Source of the DNA: Bacilli bacterium
Lineage (GTDB): Bacteria > Bacillota_I > Bacilli_A > RF39 > UBA660
Direction of reading: 5' to 3'
Assembly: GCA_017941235.1 (NCBI GenBank)
Contig: JAGAWU010000025.1
Span: forward strand, 29,860-93,859
Length of the DNA: 64,000 nt
Below, one piece after another: positions 3,751-48,179 of this stretch. Each line of letters begins with the position of its first letter. Position 1 is the first letter of the stretch. The translations under genes and the position numbers were made by a program. The notes under the pieces are model-generated. The model did not search any database. It was not told where the DNA came from and saw nothing but the letters and a program-made list of their open reading frames with translations.

Positions 3751-4206
3751 ATGAAAGAATATGAAATTAATGAAGGAACGCTTGCAATAATTGCAAATGG
3801 TAAAGGAAAAAGTAGAATTATAGAAGATTCTAATAATTATGTTGTTGATCAAAGTCCTTTTGATGTTATGGAACACAGTTGTAAGTATTTTGGTAGTTCT
3901 TATGAAGGAAGAAAGCAGGGTTCAAAGGAAGTAATAGGTGCTAATTATAAATTACCTATTATAGTAGAAGATGGAAGAAATTTAGTGTTTTTCCCGACAA
4001 CTTCAATAGAAGATGAAGAGTGTATGTGGATTGCAGTCAATAAAATTAAAACATATGAACCATTTGATTATAATACTACTAAAATTACATTTTATACTAA
4101 TCAATTTATAATAATTCCATTATCATATAGATCTGTGCAAAATCAAATATTTAGAGCTACCAGATTAAGTTATATAATAAATGAACGAAAGAAAAAATCC
4201 AATTAA
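3751..4206 (+). CDS. comK: ComK-family competence transcription factor homologue
   Basis: 151 aa. It aligns by eye along its whole length with B. subtilis ComK: YEINEGTLAII vs YEVNGATIAVL; SCKYFGSSYEGRKQGSKEV...KLPIIVED...LVFFPTTS vs SCRFFGSSYAGRKAGTYEV...KPPIMVDP...IFLFPTLS; IIPLSYRSVQNQIFRATRL vs ELPISYNSFENQVYRTAWL. Confidence 0.85.
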   Translation: MKEYEINEGTLAIIANGKGKSRIIEDSNNYVVDQSPFDVMEHSCKYFGSSYEGRKQGSKEVIGANYKLPIIVEDGRNLVFFPTTSIEDEECMWIAVNKIKTYEPFDYNTTKITFYTNQFIIIPLSYRSVQNQIFRATRLSYIINERKKKSN

Positions 4207-7412: not shown

Positions 7413-7425
7413 GAGGTGAGTGTTG

Positions 7426-10047
7426 ATGAATAATGAAGAATTAAATAATATTGAAGAAAATATTAATAATGAAAAAGAAGTAATTGATAATAAAAAGATA
7501 GAATCTAATTCTGATGAATTTAATGGTACTTTTCATGAAAGAGACACTCATGATGTTAATGATATTGTAAAAGAAATTAGTGATTCATTTCTTGATTATT
7601 CTATGAGTGTAATCACTTCTCGTGCTATTCCTGATTTAAGAGATGGTTTAAAACCTGTTCATAGAAGAATTTTATGGTCTATGTTTGAAGAAGGAAATAC
7701 TCCTGATAAGCCTCATAAAAAGAGTGCTACTACTGTTGGTTATGTTATGGGACATTATCATCCACATGGTGATAGTTCTATATATGAAGCTATGGTTAGA
7801 CTTGCACAAGATTTTAATCAAAGATATATGATGGTAGATGGGCATGGTAACTTTGGTAATATTGAAGGTGATGGCGCAGCTGCATATCGTTATACTGAAG
7901 CTAGACTTTCTAAGATTTCATTGGAAATGCTTAGGGATATTCGTAAAAATACTGTTGATATGATGCCAAACTTTGATGAAACTAGCCCTGAACCTACAGT
8001 TTTACCTTCAAGAATTCCTAATGTTTTAGTAAATGGTTCTATGGGAATTGCTGTTGGTATGGCTACAAATATTCCACCTCATAACTTAAGTGAAGTTATT
8101 GATGGATGTGTTGCTTATATTGATAATCCTGATATTGATACTTTAGGACTTATGAATTATATTAAGGGACCTGATTTTCCTACTGGTGGTATTATTTTGG
8201 GAAATTCTGGTATTAAACAGGCTTATGAAACTGGTAGAGGTAGTATTACTATACGTAGTAGAGCACAAATTGAAGAATCTGGTAATCATCATCAAATTGT
8301 TATTACAGAGGTTCCATATGGTGTTAATACTATGGATTTAAAAAATAAGGTAGCTGAGCTTGTTCATAATAAGACTATTGAGGGTATATCTGATTACCAT
8401 ACTGATTTAAAAGATGGTGTTAAGATTACTATTACATTAAAGAAAGAAGCAAATCCTCAAGTTGTTTTAAATAATTTATATAAGCATACTAATTTTCAGG
8501 TTAATTATGGGATTATATTTTTAGTTATTGATATGGGTACTCCTAAAACTTTAGGTTTAAAGGAAATAATTGCTAAATATATAGATCATCAAAAGGAAGT
8601 TATTATTAGAAGAACTAAATTTGATTTAAATAAGGCTGAAGAACGTGTTCATATCTTAGAAGGTTATAAGAAAGCTTTAGATAATTTAGATGAAGTAATA
8701 TCTATAATTAGAAATGCTGAAACTGATGTTGAAGCTAAAGAAAAATTAATTTCTAAATTCAATTTTACTGAGATTCAAGCTGATAGTATACTTGAATTAA
8801 AATTACGTCGTTTAACAGGCTTAGAGCGCGAAAAGATTGAGAATGAGTTAAAGGACTTACTTGCTCTAATAAGTGATTTAAAAGCCATTTTAGCTGATGA
8901 AAAACGCGTATTAGAGATTATCAAGAATGAATTATTAGAGATTAAGAATAAATATGGTGATGAGAGACGTACTTCAATCGATATGACTGCTATTGATTAT
9001 ATTGAAGATGAATCTTTAATACCTGTTGAAGATATTATAGTCACATTAACTAATAAGGGTTATATAAAACGTCTTAAATCTGATGTTTATAAAACTCAGA
9101 ATCGTGGTGGCGTTGGAATTAAGGGTATGTCGACAAATGAAGAAGATGTTGTTGAACATTTAATTTCGGCTAAGACACATGATTATATGTTATTCTTCTC
9201 AGATAAAGGTAAGGTATATAGAATAAAAGGATATGAAATACCTGAGTTTAGTAGACAATCTAAAGGTTTACCAATTATTAATTTATTACCATTAGAAAAA
9301 GATGAGAACATTAGTTCGATTATTAATATTTCTTCAGAAGATAATGATTATAAATATCTTGTATTTATAACAAAGAATGGTTTAGTTAAGAAGACTGCTA
9401 TTGAAGAATATGATAATATCAGAAATAGTGGTAAGATTGCTATTAATTTACGTGAAAATGATCAATTGATAAGTGTAAGAAAGACTACTGGTAATGATGA
9501 AATTGTTATTGGTGCAAGTAATGGTCGTTTAGTTCGTTTTAACGAGGAAGAAGCTAGACCAATGGGTAGAACTTCATCTGGTGTTAAAGGTATAGAATTA
9601 GATGGGGCATTTGTTGTAGGTGGAGAAGTTATTCACTCTGATGATTTGATATTAATTGTTACTGATAAAGGTTATGGTAAGCAAACTGATATTAATGAAT
9701 ATAGATTAACTCATAGGGGAAGTAAAGGTGTAAAGGCACTTAATTTAACTGATAAAAATGGTTCTATGATTGCACTAAAAAGAATTGCTTCTAACCAAAA
9801 ATTAGATTTGATGATTATTACTGATAGTGGTATGGTAATGAGAATGCCGCTTGAACAAGTTTCTACATTAAAAAGAGCAACTCAAGGTTTGAGATTAATA
9901 AAATTAAGAGATGATCAATTGGTTGCTAATGTTGCATTAGTTGAAAAATTTGAAGAGGAATCGGATAATGAAAATAAAGATAATAATGAGGATAATTCAG
10001 CTAGTGATATTAATAGTAACAATGTTAATGACGATTCAAAAGAATAA
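7426..10047 (+). CDS. gyrA: DNA gyrase subunit A
   Basis: Motifs: YSMSVITSRAIPDLRDGLKPVHRRIL, HPHGDSSIYEAMVRLAQDF, and the active-site AAAYRYTEARL. The ORF track starts at GTG 7420, but SD aggagg (7411-7416) fits ATG 7426 better. It has a long N/E-rich N-terminal extension and an acidic C-tail. Confidence 0.96.
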   Translation: MNNEELNNIEENINNEKEVIDNKKIESNSDEFNGTFHERDTHDVNDIVKEISDSFLDYSMSVITSRAIPDLRDGLKPVHRRILWSMFEEGNTPDKPHKKSATTVGYVMGHYHPHGDSSIYEAMVRLAQDFNQRYMMVDGHGNFGNIEGDGAAAYRYTEARLSKISLEMLRDIRKNTVDMMPNFDETSPEPTVLPSRIPNVLVNGSMGIAVGMATNIPPHNLSEVIDGCVAYIDNPDIDTLGLMNYIKGPDFPTGGIILGNSGIKQAYETGRGSITIRSRAQIEESGNHHQIVITEVPYGVNTMDLKNKVAELVHNKTIEGISDYHTDLKDGVKITITLKKEANPQVVLNNLYKHTNFQVNYGIIFLVIDMGTPKTLGLKEIIAKYIDHQKEVIIRRTKFDLNKAEERVHILEGYKKALDNLDEVISIIRNAETDVEAKEKLISKFNFTEIQADSILELKLRRLTGLEREKIENELKDLLALISDLKAILADEKRVLEIIKNELLEIKNKYGDERRTSIDMTAIDYIEDESLIPVEDIIVTLTNKGYIKRLKSDVYKTQNRGGVGIKGMSTNEEDVVEHLISAKTHDYMLFFSDKGKVYRIKGYEIPEFSRQSKGLPIINLLPLEKDENISSIINISSEDNDYKYLVFITKNGLVKKTAIEEYDNIRNSGKIAINLRENDQLISVRKTTGNDEIVIGASNGRLVRFNEEEARPMGRTSSGVKGIELDGAFVVGGEVIHSDDLILIVTDKGYGKQTDINEYRLTHRGSKGVKALNLTDKNGSMIALKRIASNQKLDLMIITDSGMVMRMPLEQVSTLKRATQGLRLIKLRDDQLVANVALVEKFEEESDNENKDNNEDNSASDINSNNVNDDSKE

Positions 10048-10066: not shown

Positions 10067-10092
10067 AGGGATGTTTTCATACATCTCTTTTT
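10067..10092 (+). terminator. rho-independent terminator after gyrA
   Basis: agggatgt (10067-10074) pairs with acatctct (10081-10088, one G-T pair), then TTTT. The T-run merges into the first parS palindrome. Confidence 0.65.
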
Positions 10093-10093
10093 A

Positions 10094-10109
10094 TGTTCCA
10101 CGTGGAACA
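10094..10109. other. parS: parS (ParB/Spo0J binding site) copy 1
   Basis: TGTTCCACGTGGAACA, lying inside the 20-bp perfect palindrome 10092-10111. It matches the B. subtilis consensus TGTTNCACGTGAAACA except for one position, and that change makes it perfectly symmetric. Confidence 0.85.
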
Positions 10110-10116
10110 TAAAAAA

Positions 10117-10132
10117 TATTTCCCGGGAAATA
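10117..10132. other. Noc-binding-site (NBS)-type palindrome copy 1
   Basis: TATTTCCCGGGAAATA, inside the 26-bp perfect palindrome 10112-10137. It contains the full B. subtilis NBS consensus ATTTCCCGGGAAAT and starts 7 nt after parS copy 1. Confidence 0.75.
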
Positions 10133-10265
10133 TTTTTCAACAGCTATTATCTATATATTATTCTTTATTTGAAATTGTCTTATAATATTATTATTAGTTA
10201 AGTAAATATGGAAGTGTGATTGAATATTTATGGATAATAATTATTTTTTTATAAACAAATCCTAA

Positions 10266-10281
10266 TGTTCCACGTGGAACA
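10266..10281. other. parS: parS copy 2
   Basis: TGTTCCACGTGGAACA, inside the 20-bp palindrome 10264-10283. Confidence 0.85.
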
Positions 10282-10287
10282 TTAAAA

Positions 10288-10296
10288 ATATCCACA
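10288..10296 (+). promoter_or_regulatory. DnaA-box-like 9-mer next to parS copy 2
   Basis: ATATCCACA, 1 mismatch to TTATCCACA, lying 6 nt after parS. Confidence 0.4.
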
Positions 10297-10434
10297 GAAA
10301 TTATTAATAAATTATCTTTTGTTATGATATATTTATATTATTTAGTCTATTATTAAAGAATGTGTATTTTTAGTGATTATATTAACGTAAAAAAATATAT
10401 TATATATATAATTGCTTTGATTAATTATTAAAAA

Positions 10435-10450
10435 TATTTCCCGGGAAATA
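10435..10450. other. NBS-type palindrome copy 2
   Basis: TATTTCCCGGGAAATA, at the centre of the 36-bp perfect palindrome 10425-10460 (ttattaaaaatatttcccgggaaatatttttaataa). Confidence 0.75.
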
Positions 10451-10574
10451 TTTTTAATAACAATTATATTTATTTATAATTATTTTTATTAATTTTGCTT
10501 TATTTTTAGTAAATACAATAGTATGTTTGAATATTTTAAATATTTATTGTTTATTTTTTAATAAAAATTTCTGA

Positions 10575-10590
10575 TGTTCCACGTGGAACA
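10575..10590. other. parS: parS copy 3
   Basis: TGTTCCACGTGGAACA, inside the 18-bp palindrome 10574-10591. Confidence 0.85.
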
Positions 10591-10597
10591 TAAAAAA

Positions 10598-10606
10598 ATA
10601 TCCACA
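10598..10606 (+). promoter_or_regulatory. DnaA-box-like 9-mer next to parS copy 3
   Basis: ATATCCACA, 7 nt after parS. It occupies the same relative position as in the previous repeat unit. Confidence 0.4.
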
Positions 10607-10880
10607 GGTTTTATTAATAAAATATGATTTTTTTAAATTTTATTTGATATTATTTGCTCTATTATTAGAAAATGCGTAATTTTTGCGATTTATATTGATG
10701 AAATATATTGTTTTGTATATGTAATTAGTTTGATTAATTATAGGAAATATTTTACTGGCGTTTACATTTAGTTTATGCTATTTATATTTTTTTATAAATT
10801 AGCTATTATTTTGGTAAATTAGTTCAATAAGTTGATATGAATTGATAATTGTTATTTATTTTATTGTAAATAAATAATAA

Positions 10881-10896
10881 TGTTTCACGTGGAACA
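10881..10896. other. parS: parS copy 4
   Basis: TGTTTCACGTGGAACA. Its reverse complement, TGTTCCACGTGAAACA, is an exact match to the B. subtilis parS consensus. Confidence 0.85.
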
Positions 10897-10966
10897 TAGA
10901 AAATATTTTTGTTATGATTATTATATATAATATTATATATTTTTTTAAATTTTTAATTAATAGTTG

Positions 10967-10995
10967 TTGATAAAATATATTTTTTATATTAAAAT
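10967..10995 (+). promoter_or_regulatory. sigma-A-type promoter for SRP RNA / tadA
   Basis: TTGATA (10967-10972), a 17-nt spacer, then TAAAAT (10990-10995). This places the start about 6-8 nt upstream of the SRP RNA 5' stem. Confidence 0.5.
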
Positions 10996-10999
10996 ATAT

Positions 11000-11083
11000 G
11001 TGATGCAATAAATAGTTATGGAACCAGGTCAGAATCGGAAGATAGCAGCCTTAACATTTATTATTTATGTGCATCTTTTTTTT
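11000..11083 (+). ncRNA. ffs: small bacterial SRP RNA (4.5S/scRNA type)
   Basis: The core aaCCAGGUCAGAAUCGGAAGAUAGCAGCC (11022-11050) matches the universally conserved SRP domain IV (E. coli ACCAGGUCAGGUCCGGAAGGAAGCAGCC) with a GGAA tetraloop closed by AUC/GAU. The flanking arms gatgca.ataaata.gtta (11002-) and ttaac.atttat..tgcatc (-11075) pair to form the long hairpin, followed by a U-tract. Confidence 0.8.
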
Positions 11084-11548: not shown

Positions 11549-11584
11549 TATATATATGATATAATATGTTTAGAGGTGGGTTAT

Positions 11585-13306
11585 ATGTATCAAACTTTAT
11601 ATAGAAAGTATAGGCCTAAGGACTTTAATCAAGTCGTTGGTCAAGATGTTATTGTGAAAACTCTTAAAAATTCTATAAAAAATGGGAAAGTTAGTCATGC
11701 TTATATGTTTTTTGGGCCTAGAGGTGTCGGTAAAACTTCTATAGCAAAAATTTTTGCACGCACTATAAACTGTAATAATCAAGATGGTAATATTTGTAAT
11801 AATTGTAATGCTTGTATTTCTTCTTCTAATAAGGAATGTCTTGATATTATAGAGATTGATGCTGCATCTAATAATGGTGTGGATGAAATAAGAGAATTAA
11901 GGGATAAGGTTAGTCTTGTTCCTAGTGAATTGAAGTATAAGATTTATATAATTGATGAAGTACATATGCTTACAATACAAGCATTTAATGCTTTACTTAA
12001 AACTTTAGAGGAGCCACCAAGTCATGTTATTTTTATTTTAGCAACTACGGATCCACAAAAAGTTCCGGAAACTATTGTTTCGCGTTGTCAATGTTTTTCT
12101 TTTAATAGGATTTCTAATAATGATATTGTTTTAAATTTGAAGAAAATATGTGATGCTGAAAATATTGATGTTTCAGATGATGTTTTATTTAAAATATCAG
12201 AATTTTCTAATGGTGGAATGAGAGATTCTATAGGTATGCTTGATAAGTTGTATGCTTATTCTGATGATAAGATAACTATGGAGGATTTTATTAAGTTGAA
12301 TCGTATTGTCTCTAATGAAGATATTTTTAATTTGATTCAGTTTATAGATAATAATCAGATAGATGAAGTTGTAAATTTAATTAATGAGTGGGATAGTAAT
12401 GGAATAAATATTATTCAAATTATGGATAGTATATTAGAATTTTTGAAGAATATAATATTGTCAATTTTAAAGGGGGAGAATTCTAAGTTTTCAAGTGTAG
12501 ATAAGTTAATTGATTTAGCTAATCTAATTAACGAAAAAATGTTCGATTTAAAAAAATCTAATTCTCCAAAAATTTATATACAAATTTTGTTCTTAAATTT
12601 TATGAATAATTATCAAAATATCAGTAGAAATATTTCCCGGGAAATATTTTCTGCATCAAATGATAATAGTGACTTAATAAAACCTAAAGTTTTTGAAAAA
12701 AAATCTGAAAAGGAAACAGTAGTTACTGATGGAGATAATAATCCCAAAATGGAAAAGGTAGTTTCTATATTAGAAAAATCTCAAGATGAAGTTAATAAAG
12801 ATACCAAAGTATTAGGAAATAATTTAGAAAATTCTAATATAATTGATATTATGATGATTAGATTAAATAATACTTTAGCTGAAGCTGATAAAGCTGAATT
12901 ATTGAAAGATAAAAATTGCTTTGAAAAGCTAAATGATTTTGTTTTTGATCAGAATATAGGCTATTTAGTATGTAGTTTAATGGATGGCACGCTTAGAGTT
13001 TCAAGTAAGAAAAATATTATTTTAAGTTATGAGTATGATTCAATAGTTAAAGATAATTTATGCCATTTGGATGAATTTAATAAGATTTTAAATGAAAAGT
13101 TGGGTTTGAATAAGAAAATAGGTATAGTTACTGATTTGGTTTGGGAGAAAGAAAAGGCTAATTATATTTCAAAAATTAAAAATAATGATAAATATACCTA
13201 TGTAGAAGAACCAGATTTAGTGTATAATAAAGATGTTACATCTACTACTGAAAATGTTGATGATAATTCTATTGGCATTTTTGGTGATATTGTAGAGGTT
13301 GAATAG
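11585..13306 (+). CDS. dnaX: DNA polymerase III subunit tau (DnaX)
   Basis: Motifs: LYRKYRPKDFNQVVGQ, Walker A GPRGVGKTS, zinc module C..C..C, IIDEVHML, SRCQ. SD gaggtgg fits ATG 11585 better than GTG 11576. Confidence 0.95.
   Translation: MYQTLYRKYRPKDFNQVVGQDVIVKTLKNSIKNGKVSHAYMFFGPRGVGKTSIAKIFARTINCNNQDGNICNNCNACISSSNKECLDIIEIDAASNNGVDEIRELRDKVSLVPSELKYKIYIIDEVHMLTIQAFNALLKTLEEPPSHVIFILATTDPQKVPETIVSRCQCFSFNRISNNDIVLNLKKICDAENIDVSDDVLFKISEFSNGGMRDSIGMLDKLYAYSDDKITMEDFIKLNRIVSNEDIFNLIQFIDNNQIDEVVNLINEWDSNGINIIQIMDSILEFLKNIILSILKGENSKFSSVDKLIDLANLINEKMFDLKKSNSPKIYIQILFLNFMNNYQNISRNISREIFSASNDNSDLIKPKVFEKKSEKETVVTDGDNNPKMEKVVSILEKSQDEVNKDTKVLGNNLENSNIIDIMMIRLNNTLAEADKAELLKDKNCFEKLNDFVFDQNIGYLVCSLMDGTLRVSSKKNIILSYEYDSIVKDNLCHLDEFNKILNEKLGLNKKIGIVTDLVWEKEKANYISKIKNNDKYTYVEEPDLVYNKDVTSTTENVDDNSIGIFGDIVEVE
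12632..12645. other. NBS-type palindrome copy 3, inside the dnaX coding sequence
   Basis: ATTTCCCGGGAAAT, inside the 22-bp palindrome 12628-12649. It encodes part of ...NISRNISREIF... in the DnaX linker. Confidence 0.6.
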
Positions 13307-16042: not shown

Positions 16043-16754
16043 TGTTTTAGGATATCCATTAAAAATTTATCAAGAGAGAAAATGGTTTTGTTTTTCTTTA
16101 GATAGTGTTTTACTTGCAAATTTTGTACCTATTAAAATGACGACAAAGAAAATAATGGATTTAGGAACGGGTAATGGAATTATTCCATTGATATTATCTC
16201 TTAGAACTAAATCTAGTATATATGGTATTGATATTCAAGAAGATTTGGTTAATCTTGCTAATGAATCAGTTATATATAACAAGTTGGGTTCTCAAGTTTT
16301 CATAAGTAATATGGATATAAAACAAATTAAAAATCATATAGAATTATTTAATTCTTTTGATTTAGTCGTTTCCAATCCTCCTTATTTTTATGATTATGAA
16401 ACTAGTTCAAAAAATCAAGAGATTCATAAAACTATAGCTAGACATGAAATTAAAATTAAATTAGATGATATTTTGTATTCTGCAAGTCTTATTCTTAAAG
16501 ATGGTGCAACATTTTCTATGATTAATAGGACTGATAGACTTATAGAAATATTGGAAACATTTAGAAAGTATAAAATTGAGCCTAAAAAAATTAAATTTAT
16601 ATATAAAAACTATAATTCTGAATCTAATATGGTGTATATAGAGGGAATTAAAAATGGTCATTGTGGTCTTAAAATATTATCACCATTTATTATTTATAAT
16701 TTAGACGGATCAAGTTCATTAGAGTATTTGAAAATATGTAAGAAGGTGTTATAA
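16026..16754 (+). CDS. tRNA (adenine-N6)-methyltransferase, TrmN6/YabB family
   Basis: 242 aa. It has the SAM motif DLGTGNGIIPL and the catalytic NPPYF, and sits in the YabB position. Confidence 0.8.
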   Translation: MKQLDDVLGYPLKIYQERKWFCFSLDSVLLANFVPIKMTTKKIMDLGTGNGIIPLILSLRTKSSIYGIDIQEDLVNLANESVIYNKLGSQVFISNMDIKQIKNHIELFNSFDLVVSNPPYFYDYETSSKNQEIHKTIARHEIKIKLDDILYSASLILKDGATFSMINRTDRLIEILETFRKYKIEPKKIKFIYKNYNSESNMVYIEGIKNGHCGLKILSPFIIYNLDGSSSLEYLKICKKVL

Positions 16755-17596
16755 TGAGTCAAAAAAGTTATAATGGGAGTCCAACTCTTTATTTTATTCC
16801 AACTCCAATAGGTAATTTAGAAGATATTACAATAAGGGCAATAAATACATTGAAGATGGTTGATTTTATATTATGTGAAGATACTAGGGTAACTAGTATT
16901 TTACTTAATAAATATGAAATTAAAAAGTCTTTAGTTAGATGTGATGAATATTCTCAAAATAAACTTAAAGAACAAATTATTCAATCTTTATCTGATGGGA
17001 AGAATATTGGATTTGTAAGCGATGCAGGTAGTCCGATAGTAAGTGATCCTGGTTACATAGTAGCAAAATATGTTATAGATGCAGGATATAATGTTGTAGC
17101 TTTGCCTGGTTCTACTGCTTTTGTTCCTGCTTTATCGGTTTCTGGAATTAATCCTTCTCCTTTTATTTTCTATGGTTTTTTAAGTGATAAAGTTTCTAAA
17201 CAAAAAAAAGAGCTTGAATTATTAAAAAGTAAAACAGAAACTCTTATTTTTTATGTATCAGTGCATGATGTTAAATCAACTTTGAATTCATTTTATGAAA
17301 TCTTAGGTGATAGAAAAATTGCTATTTGTAGAGAACTAACAAAAATTCATGAGGAAATTATAAGAGGAACAATTAGGGAATGTCTTAATGATTTATCTAG
17401 CTTGAAAGGTGAATTTGTTATTATTGTTGAGGGAAATACTGAAATAACAGATTTTAGTAATATTACTATTGAAGAGCATGTTAATATTTTTATTGAGGAT
17501 GGTATGTCTAAGATGGATGCAATAAAGAAAGTTGCTAAAGAGCGAGGAGTGTCAAAATCAATAGTTTATAATGAATATAATAAAATTAATAAGTAA
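16754..17596 (+). CDS. rsmI: 16S rRNA (cytidine1402-2'-O)-methyltransferase
   Basis: 280 aa. TLYFIPTPIGNLEDIT.RA...L......CEDTR and SDAG.P..SDPG are typical of RsmI. Confidence 0.92.
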   Translation: MSQKSYNGSPTLYFIPTPIGNLEDITIRAINTLKMVDFILCEDTRVTSILLNKYEIKKSLVRCDEYSQNKLKEQIIQSLSDGKNIGFVSDAGSPIVSDPGYIVAKYVIDAGYNVVALPGSTAFVPALSVSGINPSPFIFYGFLSDKVSKQKKELELLKSKTETLIFYVSVHDVKSTLNSFYEILGDRKIAICRELTKIHEEIIRGTIRECLNDLSSLKGEFVIIVEGNTEITDFSNITIEEHVNIFIEDGMSKMDAIKKVAKERGVSKSIVYNEYNKINK

Positions 17597-18177: not shown

Positions 18178-21100
18178 ATGAATATTTTAAATGAATTAGT
18201 TAAAATTGAAAAAATTAATGATGTTAAGATAACTGGTTTTAATAACGAGTCTTTTTCTGTTTATTTAAATAATTTATTTCATCAATATAATAGAAATATA
18301 GTTGTTGTAACTAATTCATTATATGAAGCTAATAAAATATATTCAAGTTTGATTAATTATAATTCTTCAGTTTATTTATTTCCCATGGATGATTTTTTAA
18401 CAAGTGAGGCAATTGCAATTAGTCCAGATCTACTTATTAATCGAATGGAAACTTTAAAAGAATGTTCAAATAGTGGTAATAAAATTATTATTACAAATTT
18501 AATGGGATATTTACGCTTTTTACCTTCAAAAGAAAAGTATTTTGAAAGTATTTTAAATATACATGTTGGTATGAGTATTGAACCATTTGAACTATATAGT
18601 AGACTTGTTAAAATAGGATATAAACCAGAGACTTTTGTAACAAAAACTGGAGAAGTTGGTTTAAGAGGATTTGTAATAGATTTTTTTGCACTTGGTGAAG
18701 AAAATCCTTGTAGGATAGAGTTTTTTGGAGATGAAGTTGAATCAATACGATATTTTGATTCTTATACACAAAAATCCACAAAAAAAGTGGATAAAATTAC
18801 AGTGTACCCTTTTTCAGAGTTTTTAGTGGATAAAAATTTTGAAGAAGAAGTAAGTACTAAACAAAAATATTTACCATTATACTCTGATAGTATTTCTTCT
18901 GTTTCAAAGTATTTAGATAACTGTATTGGCATTTATTGTAATTATAATCAATTGAAGCTTTCATACGAGAAAATTATTGAAGAAGCTTTATACTATAATA
19001 AGACTAAAGATGGTGCTTTTAATGGACATTATATGAATGATTTTAATGATATTTGTTTTAATGATACTATATATTATTCTGATGTTGATAATTTAACTTC
19101 TAATGAAAAAGTTACTTGTGTTGATTACAATTTCAGACAATTGGATTCATTTAATGAAAATGTTGATTTAATTAATTCATATATTAATAGTTCTTTACAG
19201 GATGGTAAAACTGTAATTTTAGCGCTTAAAGAGAGATTGATTGCTAATTTAAAGAAAAAAATATCCACAAAATTTGTGGAAAGTTCTATTTCTGATATAA
19301 AAATTGGATGTTTAAATTTGGTTAATTTTGATGCAAATGAGGGATTTATATATAAAGATATTATATTTATTACTGCTAGGGAGTTATTTAAAGAAAAAAT
19401 TAATAAGAAAAAGTATAAAACAAAATTCAAATATGCATCTAAAATTAATGATATTAATAAACTTAATATAGGTGATTATGTAGTACATAATATACATGGT
19501 ATTGGTATATATAATGGTATTAAGAAAATTACTTTTGATAATGTTGAAAAGGATTATGTGGAGGTTTTATATCAAGGAAAAGATAAAGTTTTTATACCCG
19601 TTGAGAAAATAGATAATTTAAATAAGTTTTCTGGTAAAGAAGGTATTGTTCCTAAAATAAATAAGTTGGGAGGAACTGAGTGGCAGAAAACAAAAAATAG
19701 AGTTAATAAGAGAATTTGTGATATGGCAGAAGAGTTGATTAAACTTTATTCTGAACGTGAAAGCAGATTAGGGTTTTCATTTTCAAAAGATAATGAATTA
19801 CAACGAGATTTTGAAAGTGATTTTCCTTATCAATTAACTATTGATCAAAAAAAGGCAATAGACCAAATTAAAATGGATATGGAATCAAGACAACCTATGG
19901 ATAGATTATTATGTGGTGATGTGGGGTTTGGTAAGACTGAAGTTGCTTTCGTAGCTGCATTTAAGGCAATAAATGATTCTAAGCAAGTATTATTATTATG
20001 CCCTACTACTATTTTATCTAATCAACATTATACTAGTGCTAAGGAGAGATTCAAGAATTATCCTGTTTCAATAGCACTTCTTAATAGATTTACTACTATT
20101 TCAGAGAAAAATAGAATTATTAAAGGTTTAAGTGATGGTACCATTGATATGGTGATTGGTACACATAGATTACTTAGCGATGATATAAAGCCTTATGACT
20201 TAGGTCTTTTAATAATTGATGAGGAACAAAGATTTGGAGTTAAGCATAAAGAAAAAATTAAACAGTATAAAACTAATGTTGATGTTTTAACATTAACTGC
20301 CACGCCTATACCTAGAACACTTCAAATGTCAATGACAGGAATTAGAAGTCTTTCATTAATAGAAACACCACCAAGTGATAGATATCCTGTTCAGACTTAT
20401 GTTATAGAAGAAAATGATCAAATTATTAAGGATGCTGTATATAAAGAATTATCTAGAGGTGGTCAAGTTTTTATTCTTTATAATAGGGTTGAAGACATTG
20501 AATTGAAAATGCTAAATATAGGTAGATTGGTTCCTGATGCTAAAATAGATTTTGCTCATGGACAAATGAATAAGAATGATTTAGAAGATAAAATGCTTAG
20601 TTTTATAAATCATGAGTTTGATGTTCTTGTTTGTACAACTATTATTGAAACAGGTATAGATATTCCTAATGTTAATACATTAATTATATTAGATGCTGAT
20701 AGATTTGGACTTAGTCAATTATACCAAATTAGAGGTAGGGTTGGTAGAAGTAATAAATTTGCATATGCTTATTTAATGTACTCTCCTTCTAAGGTTTTAA
20801 CAGAAACAGCAGTAAAAAGGCTTAATGTTATAAAAGAGTTTACTGAGTTAGGTAGTGGTTTTTCTATAGCGACACGTGATCTTTCAATAAGGGGAGCTGG
20901 AGATATATTAGGAAGTGAGCAGGCTGGATTTATAGATACTGTTGGTATAGATTTATATTTAAAAATGCTCAATGATGAGGTTGCTAGGAGAAAAGGTGAA
21001 GTTGTAAAAGAAGAAGAAGAAATTGAAAGCAAGCCATATATAAATGTTACAACACATATAAAAGATTCATATGTAAAGGACGAGCATTTAAAGATAGAAA

Positions 21101-22879: not shown

Positions 22880-23102
22880 CTGTTTAAAGGCATTGATGAA
22901 GAGTTTTTATTAATTTTGATTTAGAGAGATTCCGGTTGGTGAAAGGAATTGAGAGTTATTAAAAATATGGCTTCTGAGCTAATTTATCGATATGTAGGTA
23001 TTTTCGTTTAATAGGCGTTAACTATTTGAGTGTATAATAATAACTATTATAAAATAAGGTGGTACCGCGATTTTTCGTCCTTATGCTATAATAGTTTTTT
23101 TG
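22880..23102 (+). promoter_or_regulatory. T-box leader riboswitch (Met specifier) controlling metG
   Basis: It has an AGAGAG box (22923-22928) and the distal-loop-like CCGGTTGGTGAAAGG. A candidate specifier AUG at 22967-22969 is followed by a purine. The T-box motif AAGGTGGTACCGCG lies at 23056-23069. The terminator pairs aactattat (23042-23050) with ataatagtt (23088-23096), then a T-run. Confidence 0.8.
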
Positions 23103-31877: not shown

Positions 31878-33857
31878 ATGAATAAAAAAGTTAATAAGAA
31901 AACTATTAAGAGAGGACTTTTACCATATTTATTTATTGTAATTGTTGGTGTTGGAATACTATATGTATTTAATTTTTTAAATCATACTACTAATGTTTTA
32001 ACATATGATGAATTTATTGGTAATCTAAGTAAGGGAAAGGTTAAAACAATTGAGATTACTCCTAGAGATAGAGCACAAACATATGAGGTTACAGGTAAAC
32101 TATCTGGATATGGAGAGAATGAAAGTTATTATGTTATACTACCTAAATCAGATAGTGTTATTAATAAAGTGGTTTCTATAACTGAAGAACAGAAGGTAAA
32201 AATTACTACTAAAGAGGATCCCTCATCAAGTGCTATTTGGTTAGTGTTTGCTGATTTATTTCCATTATTATTACTTTTAGGAATTATGTTCTTTTTCTTG
32301 AGTAGACAAATGGCAGGTAATAAGAGTTCAATGGATTTTGGAAAGAGTAAAGCAAAACTTTCTGATGAAAAAAATAAAGTTACATTTAAGGATGTTGCTG
32401 GACTAAAGGAAGAAAAAGAAGAGGTAAAAGAACTTATTGATTTCTTAAAGAATCCTAAGAAGTTTCAACGTTTGGGTGCTAGAATTCCTAAAGGTGTATT
32501 ATTAATGGGGCCTCCAGGAACTGGTAAAACATTACTTGCAAGAGCTGTAGCAGGTGAAGCTAATGTTCCATTCTATTTTATAAGTGGTTCTGATTTTGTT
32601 GAATTATTTGTAGGTGTTGGAGCAAGTCGTGTTAGAGATATGTTTCAACAAGCAAAAAGAAATGCTCCTTGTCTTATATTTATAGATGAGATTGATGCTG
32701 TAGGTAGACAAAGAGGAACTGGTCTTGGTGGAGGACATGATGAACGTGAACAAACACTTAATCAATTACTTACTGAAATGGATGGTTTTGGTGAGAATAC
32801 AGGAATAATTATTATGGCTGCTACAAATAGGCCTGATGTACTTGATCCTGCTTTATTAAGGCCAGGAAGATTTGATAGACAAGTTACAGTTAGTTTGCCA
32901 GATATTAGAGGTCGTGAGGAGATACTTGCTGTTCACGCTAAAAATAAAAAATTGGCTCCTGATGTAACATTAAAAAATTTAGCTAAGAGAACACCTGGAT
33001 TTAGTGGTGCTGATCTTGAAAATTTATTAAATGAGGCAGCGTTACTTGCTGTAAGACGTGATAAAAATGCTATTACTATGCATGAAGTAGATGAAGCTAC
33101 AGATAGGGTTCTTATGGGTCCTGCTAAAGTTAGTCATAAATATAGCGAAAAAGATAGAAGGTTAGTTGCTTATCATGAAGCAGGTCATGCGGTTATTGGT
33201 TTAAAACTTGCTAGTGCTTCTGACGTTCAAAAAGTAACAATTATTCCACGTGGTTCTGCTGGTGGATATAATATGATGGTTCCAAGTGAAGAAAAACTAT
33301 GTTCAACTAAGACAGACTTATTAGAACAAATAACTGGACTTTTAGGAGGACGTGTTGCTGAAGAAATCGTATTTAAGGAAGTAACTACAGGTGCTGAAAA
33401 CGATTTTTCTAAGGCTACTAAAATTGTTAGAGCTATGGTTACTGAATATGGTATGAGTGATTTAGGTCCACTTCAATTAGAACATCAAGAGGGTGCTGCT
33501 TTCTTAGGAAGAGATTATAATAAGTCTCGTAATTTTTCTGAAACTGTTGCACATGAAATAGATATAGAAATGAGAAAAATAATCGATAAGTGCTATGTTG
33601 ATGCTAAAAAGATTATTAAGGATAATAGAGAACTTCTTAATTTAATAGCTGAGACTTTATTAGAATATGAGACATTAACTAAAGAGCAAATTGATTATTT
33701 AGTGGAAAATGGTAAAATGCCAGAAGAAGATAATGAAAATTTAGAATCTATGTCTTTAACTAGTCTAAGACAATTAGCAAAGGAAAAAGGTATTAAAAAT
33801 TCATCTAAAATGAATAAGGCAGAAATTATAGATGAATTAGATAAAATTAAGGAATAG
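31878..33857 (+). CDS. ftsH: ATP-dependent zinc metalloprotease FtsH
   Basis: 659 aa with two TM segments. Motifs: Walker [15 protein letters not shown], and the zinc site HEAGHA. Confidence 0.98.
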
Positions 33858-48039: not shown

Positions 48040-48045
48040 ATATAT

Positions 48046-48150
48046 GAATTTGTTGGTGCCATAGACAGTAGGTTGTTTGTAAATCCTACCGAGGACTACG
48101 TTAATTATGTAAGTTAAGGTTCTCGTGTCTATTACGAGAACCTTTTTTAT
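48046..48150 (+). promoter_or_regulatory. ribosomal protein L10 leader (autoregulatory attenuator)
   Basis: Stem agacagtagg...cctaccgagg (48063-48093), then the terminator-like hairpin aaggttctcgt/acgagaacctt (48116-48144) plus a T-run, just before the rplJ SD. This architecture and position match the Firmicute L10 leader. Confidence 0.65.
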
Positions 48151-48179
48151 GGCAACTCTTCAAGAAGGAGGTGTAGATA

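Follow-up and report, generated by a model that had tools for sequence, protein, structure and literature searches.

Interleaved parS and Noc-binding sites in a decayed tandem repeat beside oriC, a probable centromere of uncultured gut Bacilli

The spacer between gyrA and ffs, the gene of the small signal recognition particle (SRP) RNA, holds a compact array of short palindromes in an uncultured, low-GC Bacilli bacterium of the gut. The stretch of DNA analysed, referred to here as the window, is 64 kb long (contig JAGAWU010000025.1), and its gyrA-ffs spacer measures 949 bp. Within this spacer are four palindromes matching parS, the site bound by the partition protein ParB, and two exact copies of TATTTCCCGGGAAATA, which is the 16-bp Noc-binding site (NBS) sequence of Bacillus subtilis. 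Both kinds of site belong to one tandem repeat, and this array is the subject of the present report. The spacer is free of open reading frames (ORFs); small protein genes were considered and rejected, as the longest frame is of 50 amino acids and of low complexity. Structured RNA was likewise rejected, as Rfam at gathering thresholds gives ffs alone, and a terminator scan of the spacer flagged a sole element, which is one of the parS palindromes. The position of dnaA, the TTTTCCACA boxes on both its sides and a change in the sign of the GC skew near position 500 place the origin of replication (oriC) about 9 kb from the array, which lies to its right. The distance from the array to the dnaA start is 9.1 kb, a near-origin location such as is expected of a parS centromere.

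Scanning the window with the parS consensus TGTTNCACGTGAAACA at up to two mismatches gave 9 strand-hits, against 0.04 in shuffles, and these correspond to the four palindromes and a weak two-mismatch site at 33545. The four palindromes carry 0-1 mismatch to the consensus, and no further parS of that quality occurs in the 64-kb window outside them. Among themselves, the four 16-mers vary at one position only, which is the degenerate N of the consensus. They are spaced by 172, 309 and 306 bp, and each interval is a unit of a decayed repeat (Table 1). Outside the 16-mer, units B and C are 71% identical in a gapped alignment (z = 10 against shuffles), and a repeat search recovered six co-linear block families lying 306-318 bp apart. 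The ~310-bp period of the window escapes Tandem Repeats Finder at a minimum score of 30, because the units are just ~71% alike. Unit A is a full unit that has lost about 150 bp internally, between two AAAAATAT stretches. With units 71% identical, a given 16-mer has a chance of about 0.004 of being the same in two of them, and here three are identical while the fourth differs only at N. Copy number also varies within the species of the window, as one related locus (L001) has five parS and three NBS, while a second (L002) and the window have four and two; the extra unit of L001 is 72-75% identical to the adjoining units.

The original prediction for this DNA, made from the letters of the window, had described much of this architecture. 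It gave the positions and sequences of the four parS 16-mers and their spacing correctly, and its ORF-free spacer of ~0.95 kb, about 9 kb from dnaA, agrees with the lengths and the dnaA start found here. The decaying ~310-bp tandem repeat that it proposed is real and old, with its three repeat blocks among the six families. Its contrast between conserved sites and drifting spacers is seen within the array, and again across ~100 related loci.

Table 1. Coordinates of the array, its sites and the neighbouring genes in the window
Feature	Position	Strand	Remarks
parS 1	10094-10109		TGTTCCACGTGGAACA; opens shortened unit A
parS 2	10266-10281		TGTTCCACGTGGAACA; opens unit B
parS 3	10575-10590		TGTTCCACGTGGAACA; opens unit C
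parS 4	10881-10896		TGTTTCACGTGGAACA; exact consensus match on minus strand; ends array
Decayed tandem repeat, 3.5 units	10094-10880	+	A 10094-10265 (172 bp), B 10266-10574 (309 bp), C 10575-10880 (306 bp)
NBS 1	10117-10132		TATTTCCCGGGAAATA palindrome, exact; 7 bp past parS 1
NBS 2	10435-10450		TATTTCCCGGGAAATA, exact; middle of unit B
NBS remnant of unit C, decayed	10744-10762		GAAATATTTTACTGGCGTT; L001 strain has an extra unit with intact NBS
NBS 3 in dnaX	12631-12646		exact TATTTCCCGGGAAATA; read I-S-R-E-I, just past DnaX domain III; 1.7 kb beyond array
DnaA-box-like ATATCCACA	10288-10296	+	6 nt past parS 2; inside 14-nt block AAAAATATCCACAG kept between units
DnaA-box-like ATATCCACA	10598-10606	+	past parS 3; inside 14-nt block AAAAATATCCACAG
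gyrA	7420-10047	+	left edge of spacer
Promoter-like TTGATA-17-TAAAAT	10967-10995	+	immediately 5' of ffs
ffs (small SRP RNA)	10997-11083	+	right edge of spacer; Rfam
dnaX	11576-13306	+	carries intragenic NBS
dnaA	977-2350	+	TTTTCCACA boxes on both sides: 640, 649, 2379, 2441

The exact NBS occurs three times in the window, where 0.15 would be expected even at two mismatches, and all three copies fall within 2.5 kb in the ~90 kb inspected around oriC, made up of the window and two further loci of the species (L001 and L087). The third copy lies inside dnaX, beyond the spacer. The two DnaA-box-like motifs of the window carry one mismatch each.

The same locus can be followed through many relatives. 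The window GyrA is 97% identical to that of the metagenome-assembled genome 'Bacillales bacterium UBA7476' and 70-80% identical to those of dozens of uncultured Bacilli genomes with a GC content of 23-31%, including Clostridium sp. CAG:417, CAG:302, Ca. Aphodocola and Ca. Scybalousia; the window DnaA has its matches on gut-metagenome contigs. Throughout these relatives the order gyrA-[spacer]-ffs-(tadA)-dnaX-ybaB-recR is constant. Enrichment was counted over 93 loci with a complete interval, and species over 64 species representatives. The spacers contain 318 exact parS (2.74 per kb), compared with 31 in dnaX and 4 over the other 1.59 Mb; for NBS they contain 92 (0.79 per kb), with 25 in dnaX and 23 elsewhere (0.014 per kb). 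The spacer is thus enriched about 1000-fold in parS and about 55-fold in NBS. At least two parS follow gyrA in 49 of the 64 species and at least four in 30, with up to 12 in a single array, and NBS is present in the spacer of 25. In a cross-species BLAST of the window spacer, similarity is anchored on the palindromes, the remainder being weak ~70% matches over AT-rich flanks. The extended consensus reads A-TGTT[TC]CACGTG[AG]AACA-T for parS and T-ATTTCCCGGGAAAT-A for NBS.

In many species, parS and NBS alternate, often strictly, at one common period, and the length of the unit differs from lineage to lineage. L011 carries both sites in a 118-bp unit of 7.3 copies with 87% matches, and L150 in a 61-bp unit of 9.3 copies with 92%. 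The two sites share a period of 73 bp in L008 and of 70 bp in L012, and in L101 a symmetric parS variant, AGTTTCACGTGAAACT (18973-19300), alternates with NBS at 82 bp. The distance from NBS to the nearest parS is 20-29 bp, centre to centre, for 47 of 133 NBS in 21 loci. The classes are discrete, as all loci together contain 437 pure parS, 164 pure NBS and 8 hybrids. Canonical parS is absent from L013 (~11600 and 13600) and L016 (10411), which have the hybrid TATTTCACGTGAAATA instead, and L013 also has a TATTTCACGCGAAATA variant.

Palindromes of this kind could in principle be targets of another factor, such as a transcription factor or a restriction-modification system, or the remnants of a selfish repeat. 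The cores CACGTG and CCCGGG are 6-bp palindromes of the restriction type. Among one-mismatch NBS variants at all loci, 32 of 42 read CCTGGG or CCCAGG, which are C-to-T transitions at the central CpG and hint that cytosines of CCCGGG or CCGG are methylated in these genomes. An assembly artefact is conceivable as well, since the sequences come from metagenomes. However, conservation is not limited to the cores but covers all 16-18 bp, and each position agrees with the published parS and NBS sequences. Their distribution is limited to a single syntenic locus, and, apart from the scattered copies counted above, the sites are absent from the other 1.6 Mb examined; the Rfam families of the spacer amount to ffs alone. 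Additionally, different projects have yielded over 100 independent assemblies that contain the sites. Given this full-length match and the number of assemblies, other binding factors, selfish repeats or assembly artefacts are the least likely of the explanations considered here.

A further candidate is a DnaA-binding regulatory locus, either a titrating cluster of boxes or a second part of oriC, in which the palindromes would be secondary. The motif ATATCCACA follows parS 2 and parS 3 in the conserved 14-nt block, and several lineages have triads of NBS, DnaA box and parS, in which a perfect TT[AT]TCCACA box occupies the 11-13 bp that separate the two palindromes (L033:12900-12950, L039:3375, L109:18907). 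DnaA boxes are 4-fold enriched in the spacers, and 21 of the 39 plus-strand spacer boxes adjoin parS. DnaA also binds the centromere of Caulobacter, as far as the citing account goes (Mera 2014, cited in PMC6399470). Against this, the spacers hold 0.61 boxes per kb, compared with 4.8 per kb at oriC, the boxes of the window are mismatched, most arrays are box-free, and parS is the sole universal element. A locus devoted primarily to DnaA is therefore very unlikely.

The proteins expected to read the two sites are encoded on the other side of oriC. In the species of the window, an rsmG-noc-parA-parB operon (in L087) lies to the left of oriC, about 28 kb from the array. The ParB (L087:6901-7797) is 298 amino acids long and has the GERRVKAS sequence, a motif of the cytidine triphosphate-binding GERRxRA type, an N-terminal LGKGL motif and the specificity residues R-T-K-G (R173/G201). 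Among solved structures it matches B. subtilis Spo0J best (PDB 6sdk; 213 bits, compared with 162 bits for Noc), and its gene contains no parS in this species. ParA, directly upstream of parB, has 261 amino acids, a KGGVGKTT motif and the Pfam families ParA, CbiA and AAA_31, and its NCBIfam matches are under the equivalog cutoffs. The ParB/Spo0J homologue on which the original prediction depended is thus present, of the Spo0J type (R-T-K-G, GERRxxA motif) and accompanied by ParA.

The second ParB-family protein, next to rsmG, is a Noc paralogue of 528 amino acids (P0001, L087:4437-6023) with the residues Q-K-A-R (Q173, K179, R201). Alignment to the Noc structures confirms these specificity columns, and Q-K-x-R is found in 30 of the 30 clade members seen. 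Among solved structures it scores 213 and 190 bits with Noc and 167-177 bits with ParB/Spo0J, and its C-terminal domain is Noc-like. Before that domain is a low-complexity linker of ~270 amino acids, in which the short motifs NYGE[IV]DEDE, KISxDLDSLLNI, YFQxxDLxxVxLP and KSLGMALIE are conserved. According to Jalal 2020 (PMC7383237), R173/G201 confers binding to parS, and Q173/R201 with one lysine at 179 or 184 confers binding to NBS. By this rule, ParB and the Noc paralogue match parS and NBS, respectively. A single protein of dual specificity was considered and rejected, since each of the two paralogues has a residue signature of its own and the sites likewise fall into separate classes.

The link between the paralogue and its predicted site was tested on DnaA-centred loci, as the GyrA-centred ones stop before noc. 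Fifteen species carry one to three parS within dnaX and no NBS across their ~22-kb loci. Seven DnaA-centred loci of that clade (L168-L174) contain 3-12 parS each and no NBS even at two mismatches; L168 and L169 end before the noc position, and L170-L174 reach it. In the latter five, the gene after rsmG encodes an N/Q-rich protein of 324-471 amino acids. No ParB-family domain was found by tblastn anywhere in these five loci, none of the five proteins has a Pfam record, and ParB_N and HTH_ParB are absent from L171 by Pfam and NCBIfam scans. The protein of L171 (279-1511, minus strand) keeps the C-terminal ~45 amino acids of Noc (E = 8e-7 against P0001). By eye, this C-terminal motif can also be recognised in L172 (1361-2536) and L173 (1417-2391), and the gene of L174 (1-1038) is cut by the end of the locus. 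In L171-L173, which extend past the gene, parAB is absent after the truncated noc, and rpiB, DUF1146 and spoIID are found there instead. Each NBS-bearing lineage reaching rsmG has a Q-K-x-R protein in this place, while in the NBS-free clade noc is truncated, not missing. Therefore, NBS and the DNA-binding half of Noc appear to have been lost together. Of the sequence evidence for binding of NBS by the paralogue, this co-loss is the strongest; it comes from a comparison uncorrected for phylogeny, and a single loss event may account for it. The linker and the C-terminal domain must have a role of their own, because both persist where the DNA-binding half is gone.

The palindrome in dnaX, past domain III, belongs to the same picture. 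It is an NBS, read as (I)ISREI(I), in 25 loci (for example L017:14293, L023:14629 and L030:14434), and parS, read as [ND]V[SP]RET and present in one to three copies, in 15 loci; no locus has both. The two palindromes are in the same reading frame, and the four bases by which they differ give V-to-I and T-to-I replacements together with two synonymous changes. The dnaX palindrome looks like an orthologous site that changed specificity between lineages. A further intragenic NBS recurs in many lineages ~7 kb downstream of gyrA, in a TP_methylase gene that is probably RsmI, where it is read within GNNRKIS-ISREI-TKKYEE (L062:19178, L070:19430, L072:19215 and L024:18945, among others). The TP_methylase gene of the window (16754-17596) reads AICRELTKIHEE, without NBS.

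Taken together, these observations make it probable that the gyrA-ffs spacer is an origin-proximal centromere, built as a tandem repeat whose ancestral unit of ~310 bp held one parS and one NBS. Following the established biochemistry of ParB and Noc loading (PMC7333895, PMC8429893), ParB dimers would nucleate at each parS, close as cytidine triphosphate (CTP) clamps and slide outwards. The product would be a dense partition complex over gyrA-dnaX that cooperates with ParA and, presumably, with SMC. At the interleaved NBS the Noc paralogue would nucleate likewise, so that two paralogous types of clamp would be loaded on one kilobase. The array itself could be maintained by unequal crossing-over or slippage, through which units are gained, lost and re-homogenised, with purifying selection restricted to the palindromes. 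Such upkeep fits the copy-number polymorphism and the range of unit identity, from 92% in L150 to 71% in the window.

Several points weigh against this proposal. All of the evidence is drawn from the sequences of uncultured organisms, and binding is inferred from them. The repeat copy numbers come from short-read metagenome assemblies of near-identical units and may be wrong, and further parS or NBS clusters may exist beyond the inspected ~90 kb around oriC. The 21 kb covered in the parS-only clade showed no ParB gene. The membrane-targeting element particular to the Noc family (alpha-1, alpha-2 and loop; PMC8429893) is missing from the Noc paralogue, which has neither the N-terminal amphipathic helix nor helix alpha-2. 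There is a stop codon six codons 5' of its ATG, its residue 3 aligns with residue 24 of Geobacillus Noc, and at most 14-24 residues precede PNRFQPR in all 30 clade members. Without the membrane helix, classical membrane-tethering nucleoid occlusion is unlikely. The paralogue also scores 281.4 bits with NCBIfam TIGR04285 (nucleoid_noc), which does not pass the cutoff of 315, and ParB scores 227; the match is limited to model positions 1-204 of 255, because the long linker displaces the C-terminal domain. Finally, conservation is looser for NBS than for parS. When sites with up to one mismatch are counted, 77% of NBS are exact, compared with 89% of parS, and one of the three full units of the window is without an intact NBS. 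Part of the parS/NBS interleaving could therefore reflect the co-amplification of neighbours.

Carried further, this last point becomes the main alternative, which is that the locus is a plain parS centromere in which NBS and DnaA-box-like motifs are passengers of an amplified unit, with Noc acting elsewhere on the chromosome. The more frequent decay of NBS and its loss from unit C are what co-amplified passengers would show, and many lineages have parS-only arrays; isolated NBS also occur elsewhere near the origin, at about 1 per 70 kb. Yet the NBS is found in arrays of unrelated unit length (61, 70, 73, 82, 118 and ~310 bp) in many species, which would need repeated independent co-amplification or retention. 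Its 55-fold enrichment in the spacer and its preferred distance to parS are likewise difficult to place among passengers. In the window, two of three unit NBS are exact despite the 71% identity of the spacers, and across the clade the NBS disappear together with the DNA-binding domain of Noc. We rate the passenger explanation as unlikely, and favour the centromere in which both sites belong to the unit. A bolder proposition is that the array is an origin-organising hub which deliberately co-loads ParB and a helix-less Noc derivative, and in some lineages DnaA too, at sites often 20-29 bp apart. On the present evidence this seems to us evenly poised, and if it holds, the clade is a natural experiment in ParB/Noc evolution, comprising the dnaX switch, the near absence of hybrids and the joint loss of NBS and Noc DNA binding.

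The broader statements of the original prediction need to be adjusted in this light. A chromosomal centromere is supported by the exact parS and by the encoded ParB and ParA, but the array is not pure parS, as two exact NBS and two DnaA-box-like motifs had been overlooked. The label of a plasmid-style array suits the tandem direct repeats with one ParB-family site each, not the arrangement of the genes, since parAB does not adjoin the array. The locus was called dedicated and noncoding; the spacer is indeed ORF-free, but the zone of sites reaches into dnaX. A four-site array had also been regarded as unusual, and this is overstated, because arrays of several sites normally follow gyrA in the clade and near-origin parS clusters are well known elsewhere. 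The unusual features are the construction from tandem repeats and the presence of ParB and Noc sites together.

Other features of the origin region deserve mention. A ComK-family gene lies between dnaN and recF (window 3751-4206, Pfam E = 2.5e-43) and is in the same place in all related loci examined; at this position B. subtilis has yaaA, a small S4-domain gene. In the species of the window, a gene for a 653-residue DUF87 protein (HerA-like ATPase; L001:5442-7403) is inserted in opposite orientation between jag and mnmE, a spot which holds different unannotated genes in other lineages. Rfam also identifies a T-box leader and an L10 leader in the window, at 22884-23085 and 48041-48157. No tRNA or rRNA genes occur across the 64-kb window beside the origin, in contrast to the rRNA-rich origin region of B. 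subtilis.

The array touches on several questions of current interest. A review of the field lists among its open questions the reason for parS clustering and the origin of the clusters (PMC7333895). These arrays show one route, namely tandem amplification, gain and loss of units, re-homogenisation and selection on the palindromes alone. The alternation of parS and NBS places two paralogous clamp-loading sites side by side, which raises the question of whether the clamps of ParB and of Noc obstruct, bypass or assist one another, and of what a helix-less Noc does at a centromere. DNA-binding specificity has been approached by mutagenesis (Jalal 2020, PMC7383237), and the clade offers natural material on its evolution, through the in-frame dnaX switch, the near-absent hybrids and the co-loss of site and domain. 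In practice, the array could serve as a sequence marker of the origin region in metagenome-assembled genomes of these widespread uncultured gut Bacilli. Literature searches found no description of mixed parS/NBS arrays. Four features appear new: an array that is a tandem repeat and keeps to one intergenic position throughout a clade, ParB sites alternating with Noc sites, a Noc protein lacking the membrane helix, and a natural parS/NBS switch with co-loss of sites and DNA-binding domain. The parS part alone is textbook and belongs to the known origin-proximal clusters (PMC7333895).

Among the closest known systems is Spo0J/parS of B. subtilis, with Soj and SMC loading, which shares the consensus TGTTNCACGTGAAACA, the gidB-noc-soj-spo0J order beside oriC, a ParB nearest to Spo0J and the origin-proximal sites. 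In B. subtilis, parS sites are single, spread over hundreds of kb and mostly intragenic. The array described here differs in gathering its sites, four in the window and as many as 12 in relatives, into a single noncoding tandem repeat at the fixed gyrA-ffs locus, with none in parB. The Noc system of Bacillus subtilis and Geobacillus shares the identical NBS TATTTCCCGGGAAATA, a paralogue beside rsmG, the residues Q173/K179/R201, a Noc-like C-terminus and the best match among solved structures. The paralogue, in contrast, lacks the amphipathic helix and helix alpha-2, has the ~270-residue linker added and remains under the NCBIfam cutoff. Furthermore, the NBS of Bacillus are scattered around the chromosome (PMC8429893), whereas here they are concentrated inside the centromere array, alternating with parS. 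Depletion of NBS near the terminus is a further mark of nucleoid-occlusion systems.

In other bacteria, the parS clusters of Caulobacter, Pseudomonas aeruginosa, Myxococcus, Streptomyces and Corynebacterium have, to our knowledge, no common-unit tandem repeats and no Noc/NBS system. Clusters within kilobases of oriC have been described for Caulobacter, Pseudomonas aeruginosa, Myxococcus, Streptomyces and Corynebacterium (PMC7333895, PMC4368675, PMC5815017, PMC3778016). The DnaA boxes of the Caulobacter centromere, as represented in the source citing Mera 2014, are comparable in placing initiator motifs beside parS; here ATATCCACA follows two parS, and perfect boxes adjoin parS in some relatives. 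Unlike Caulobacter, the putative boxes are present in a subset of lineages, and those of the window are imperfect.

The iterated centromeres of plasmids offer a structural parallel to the repeat itself. The sopC locus of the F plasmid consists of 12 tandem 43-bp repeats, each with an inverted repeat bound by SopB. The array resembles sopC in its direct repeats with one ParB-family palindrome each and in its variable copy number. It differs in being chromosomal, with parAB ~28 kb off, beyond rsmG-noc and across oriC, in having units which are ~71% identical in the window, and in carrying two ParB-family site types per unit.

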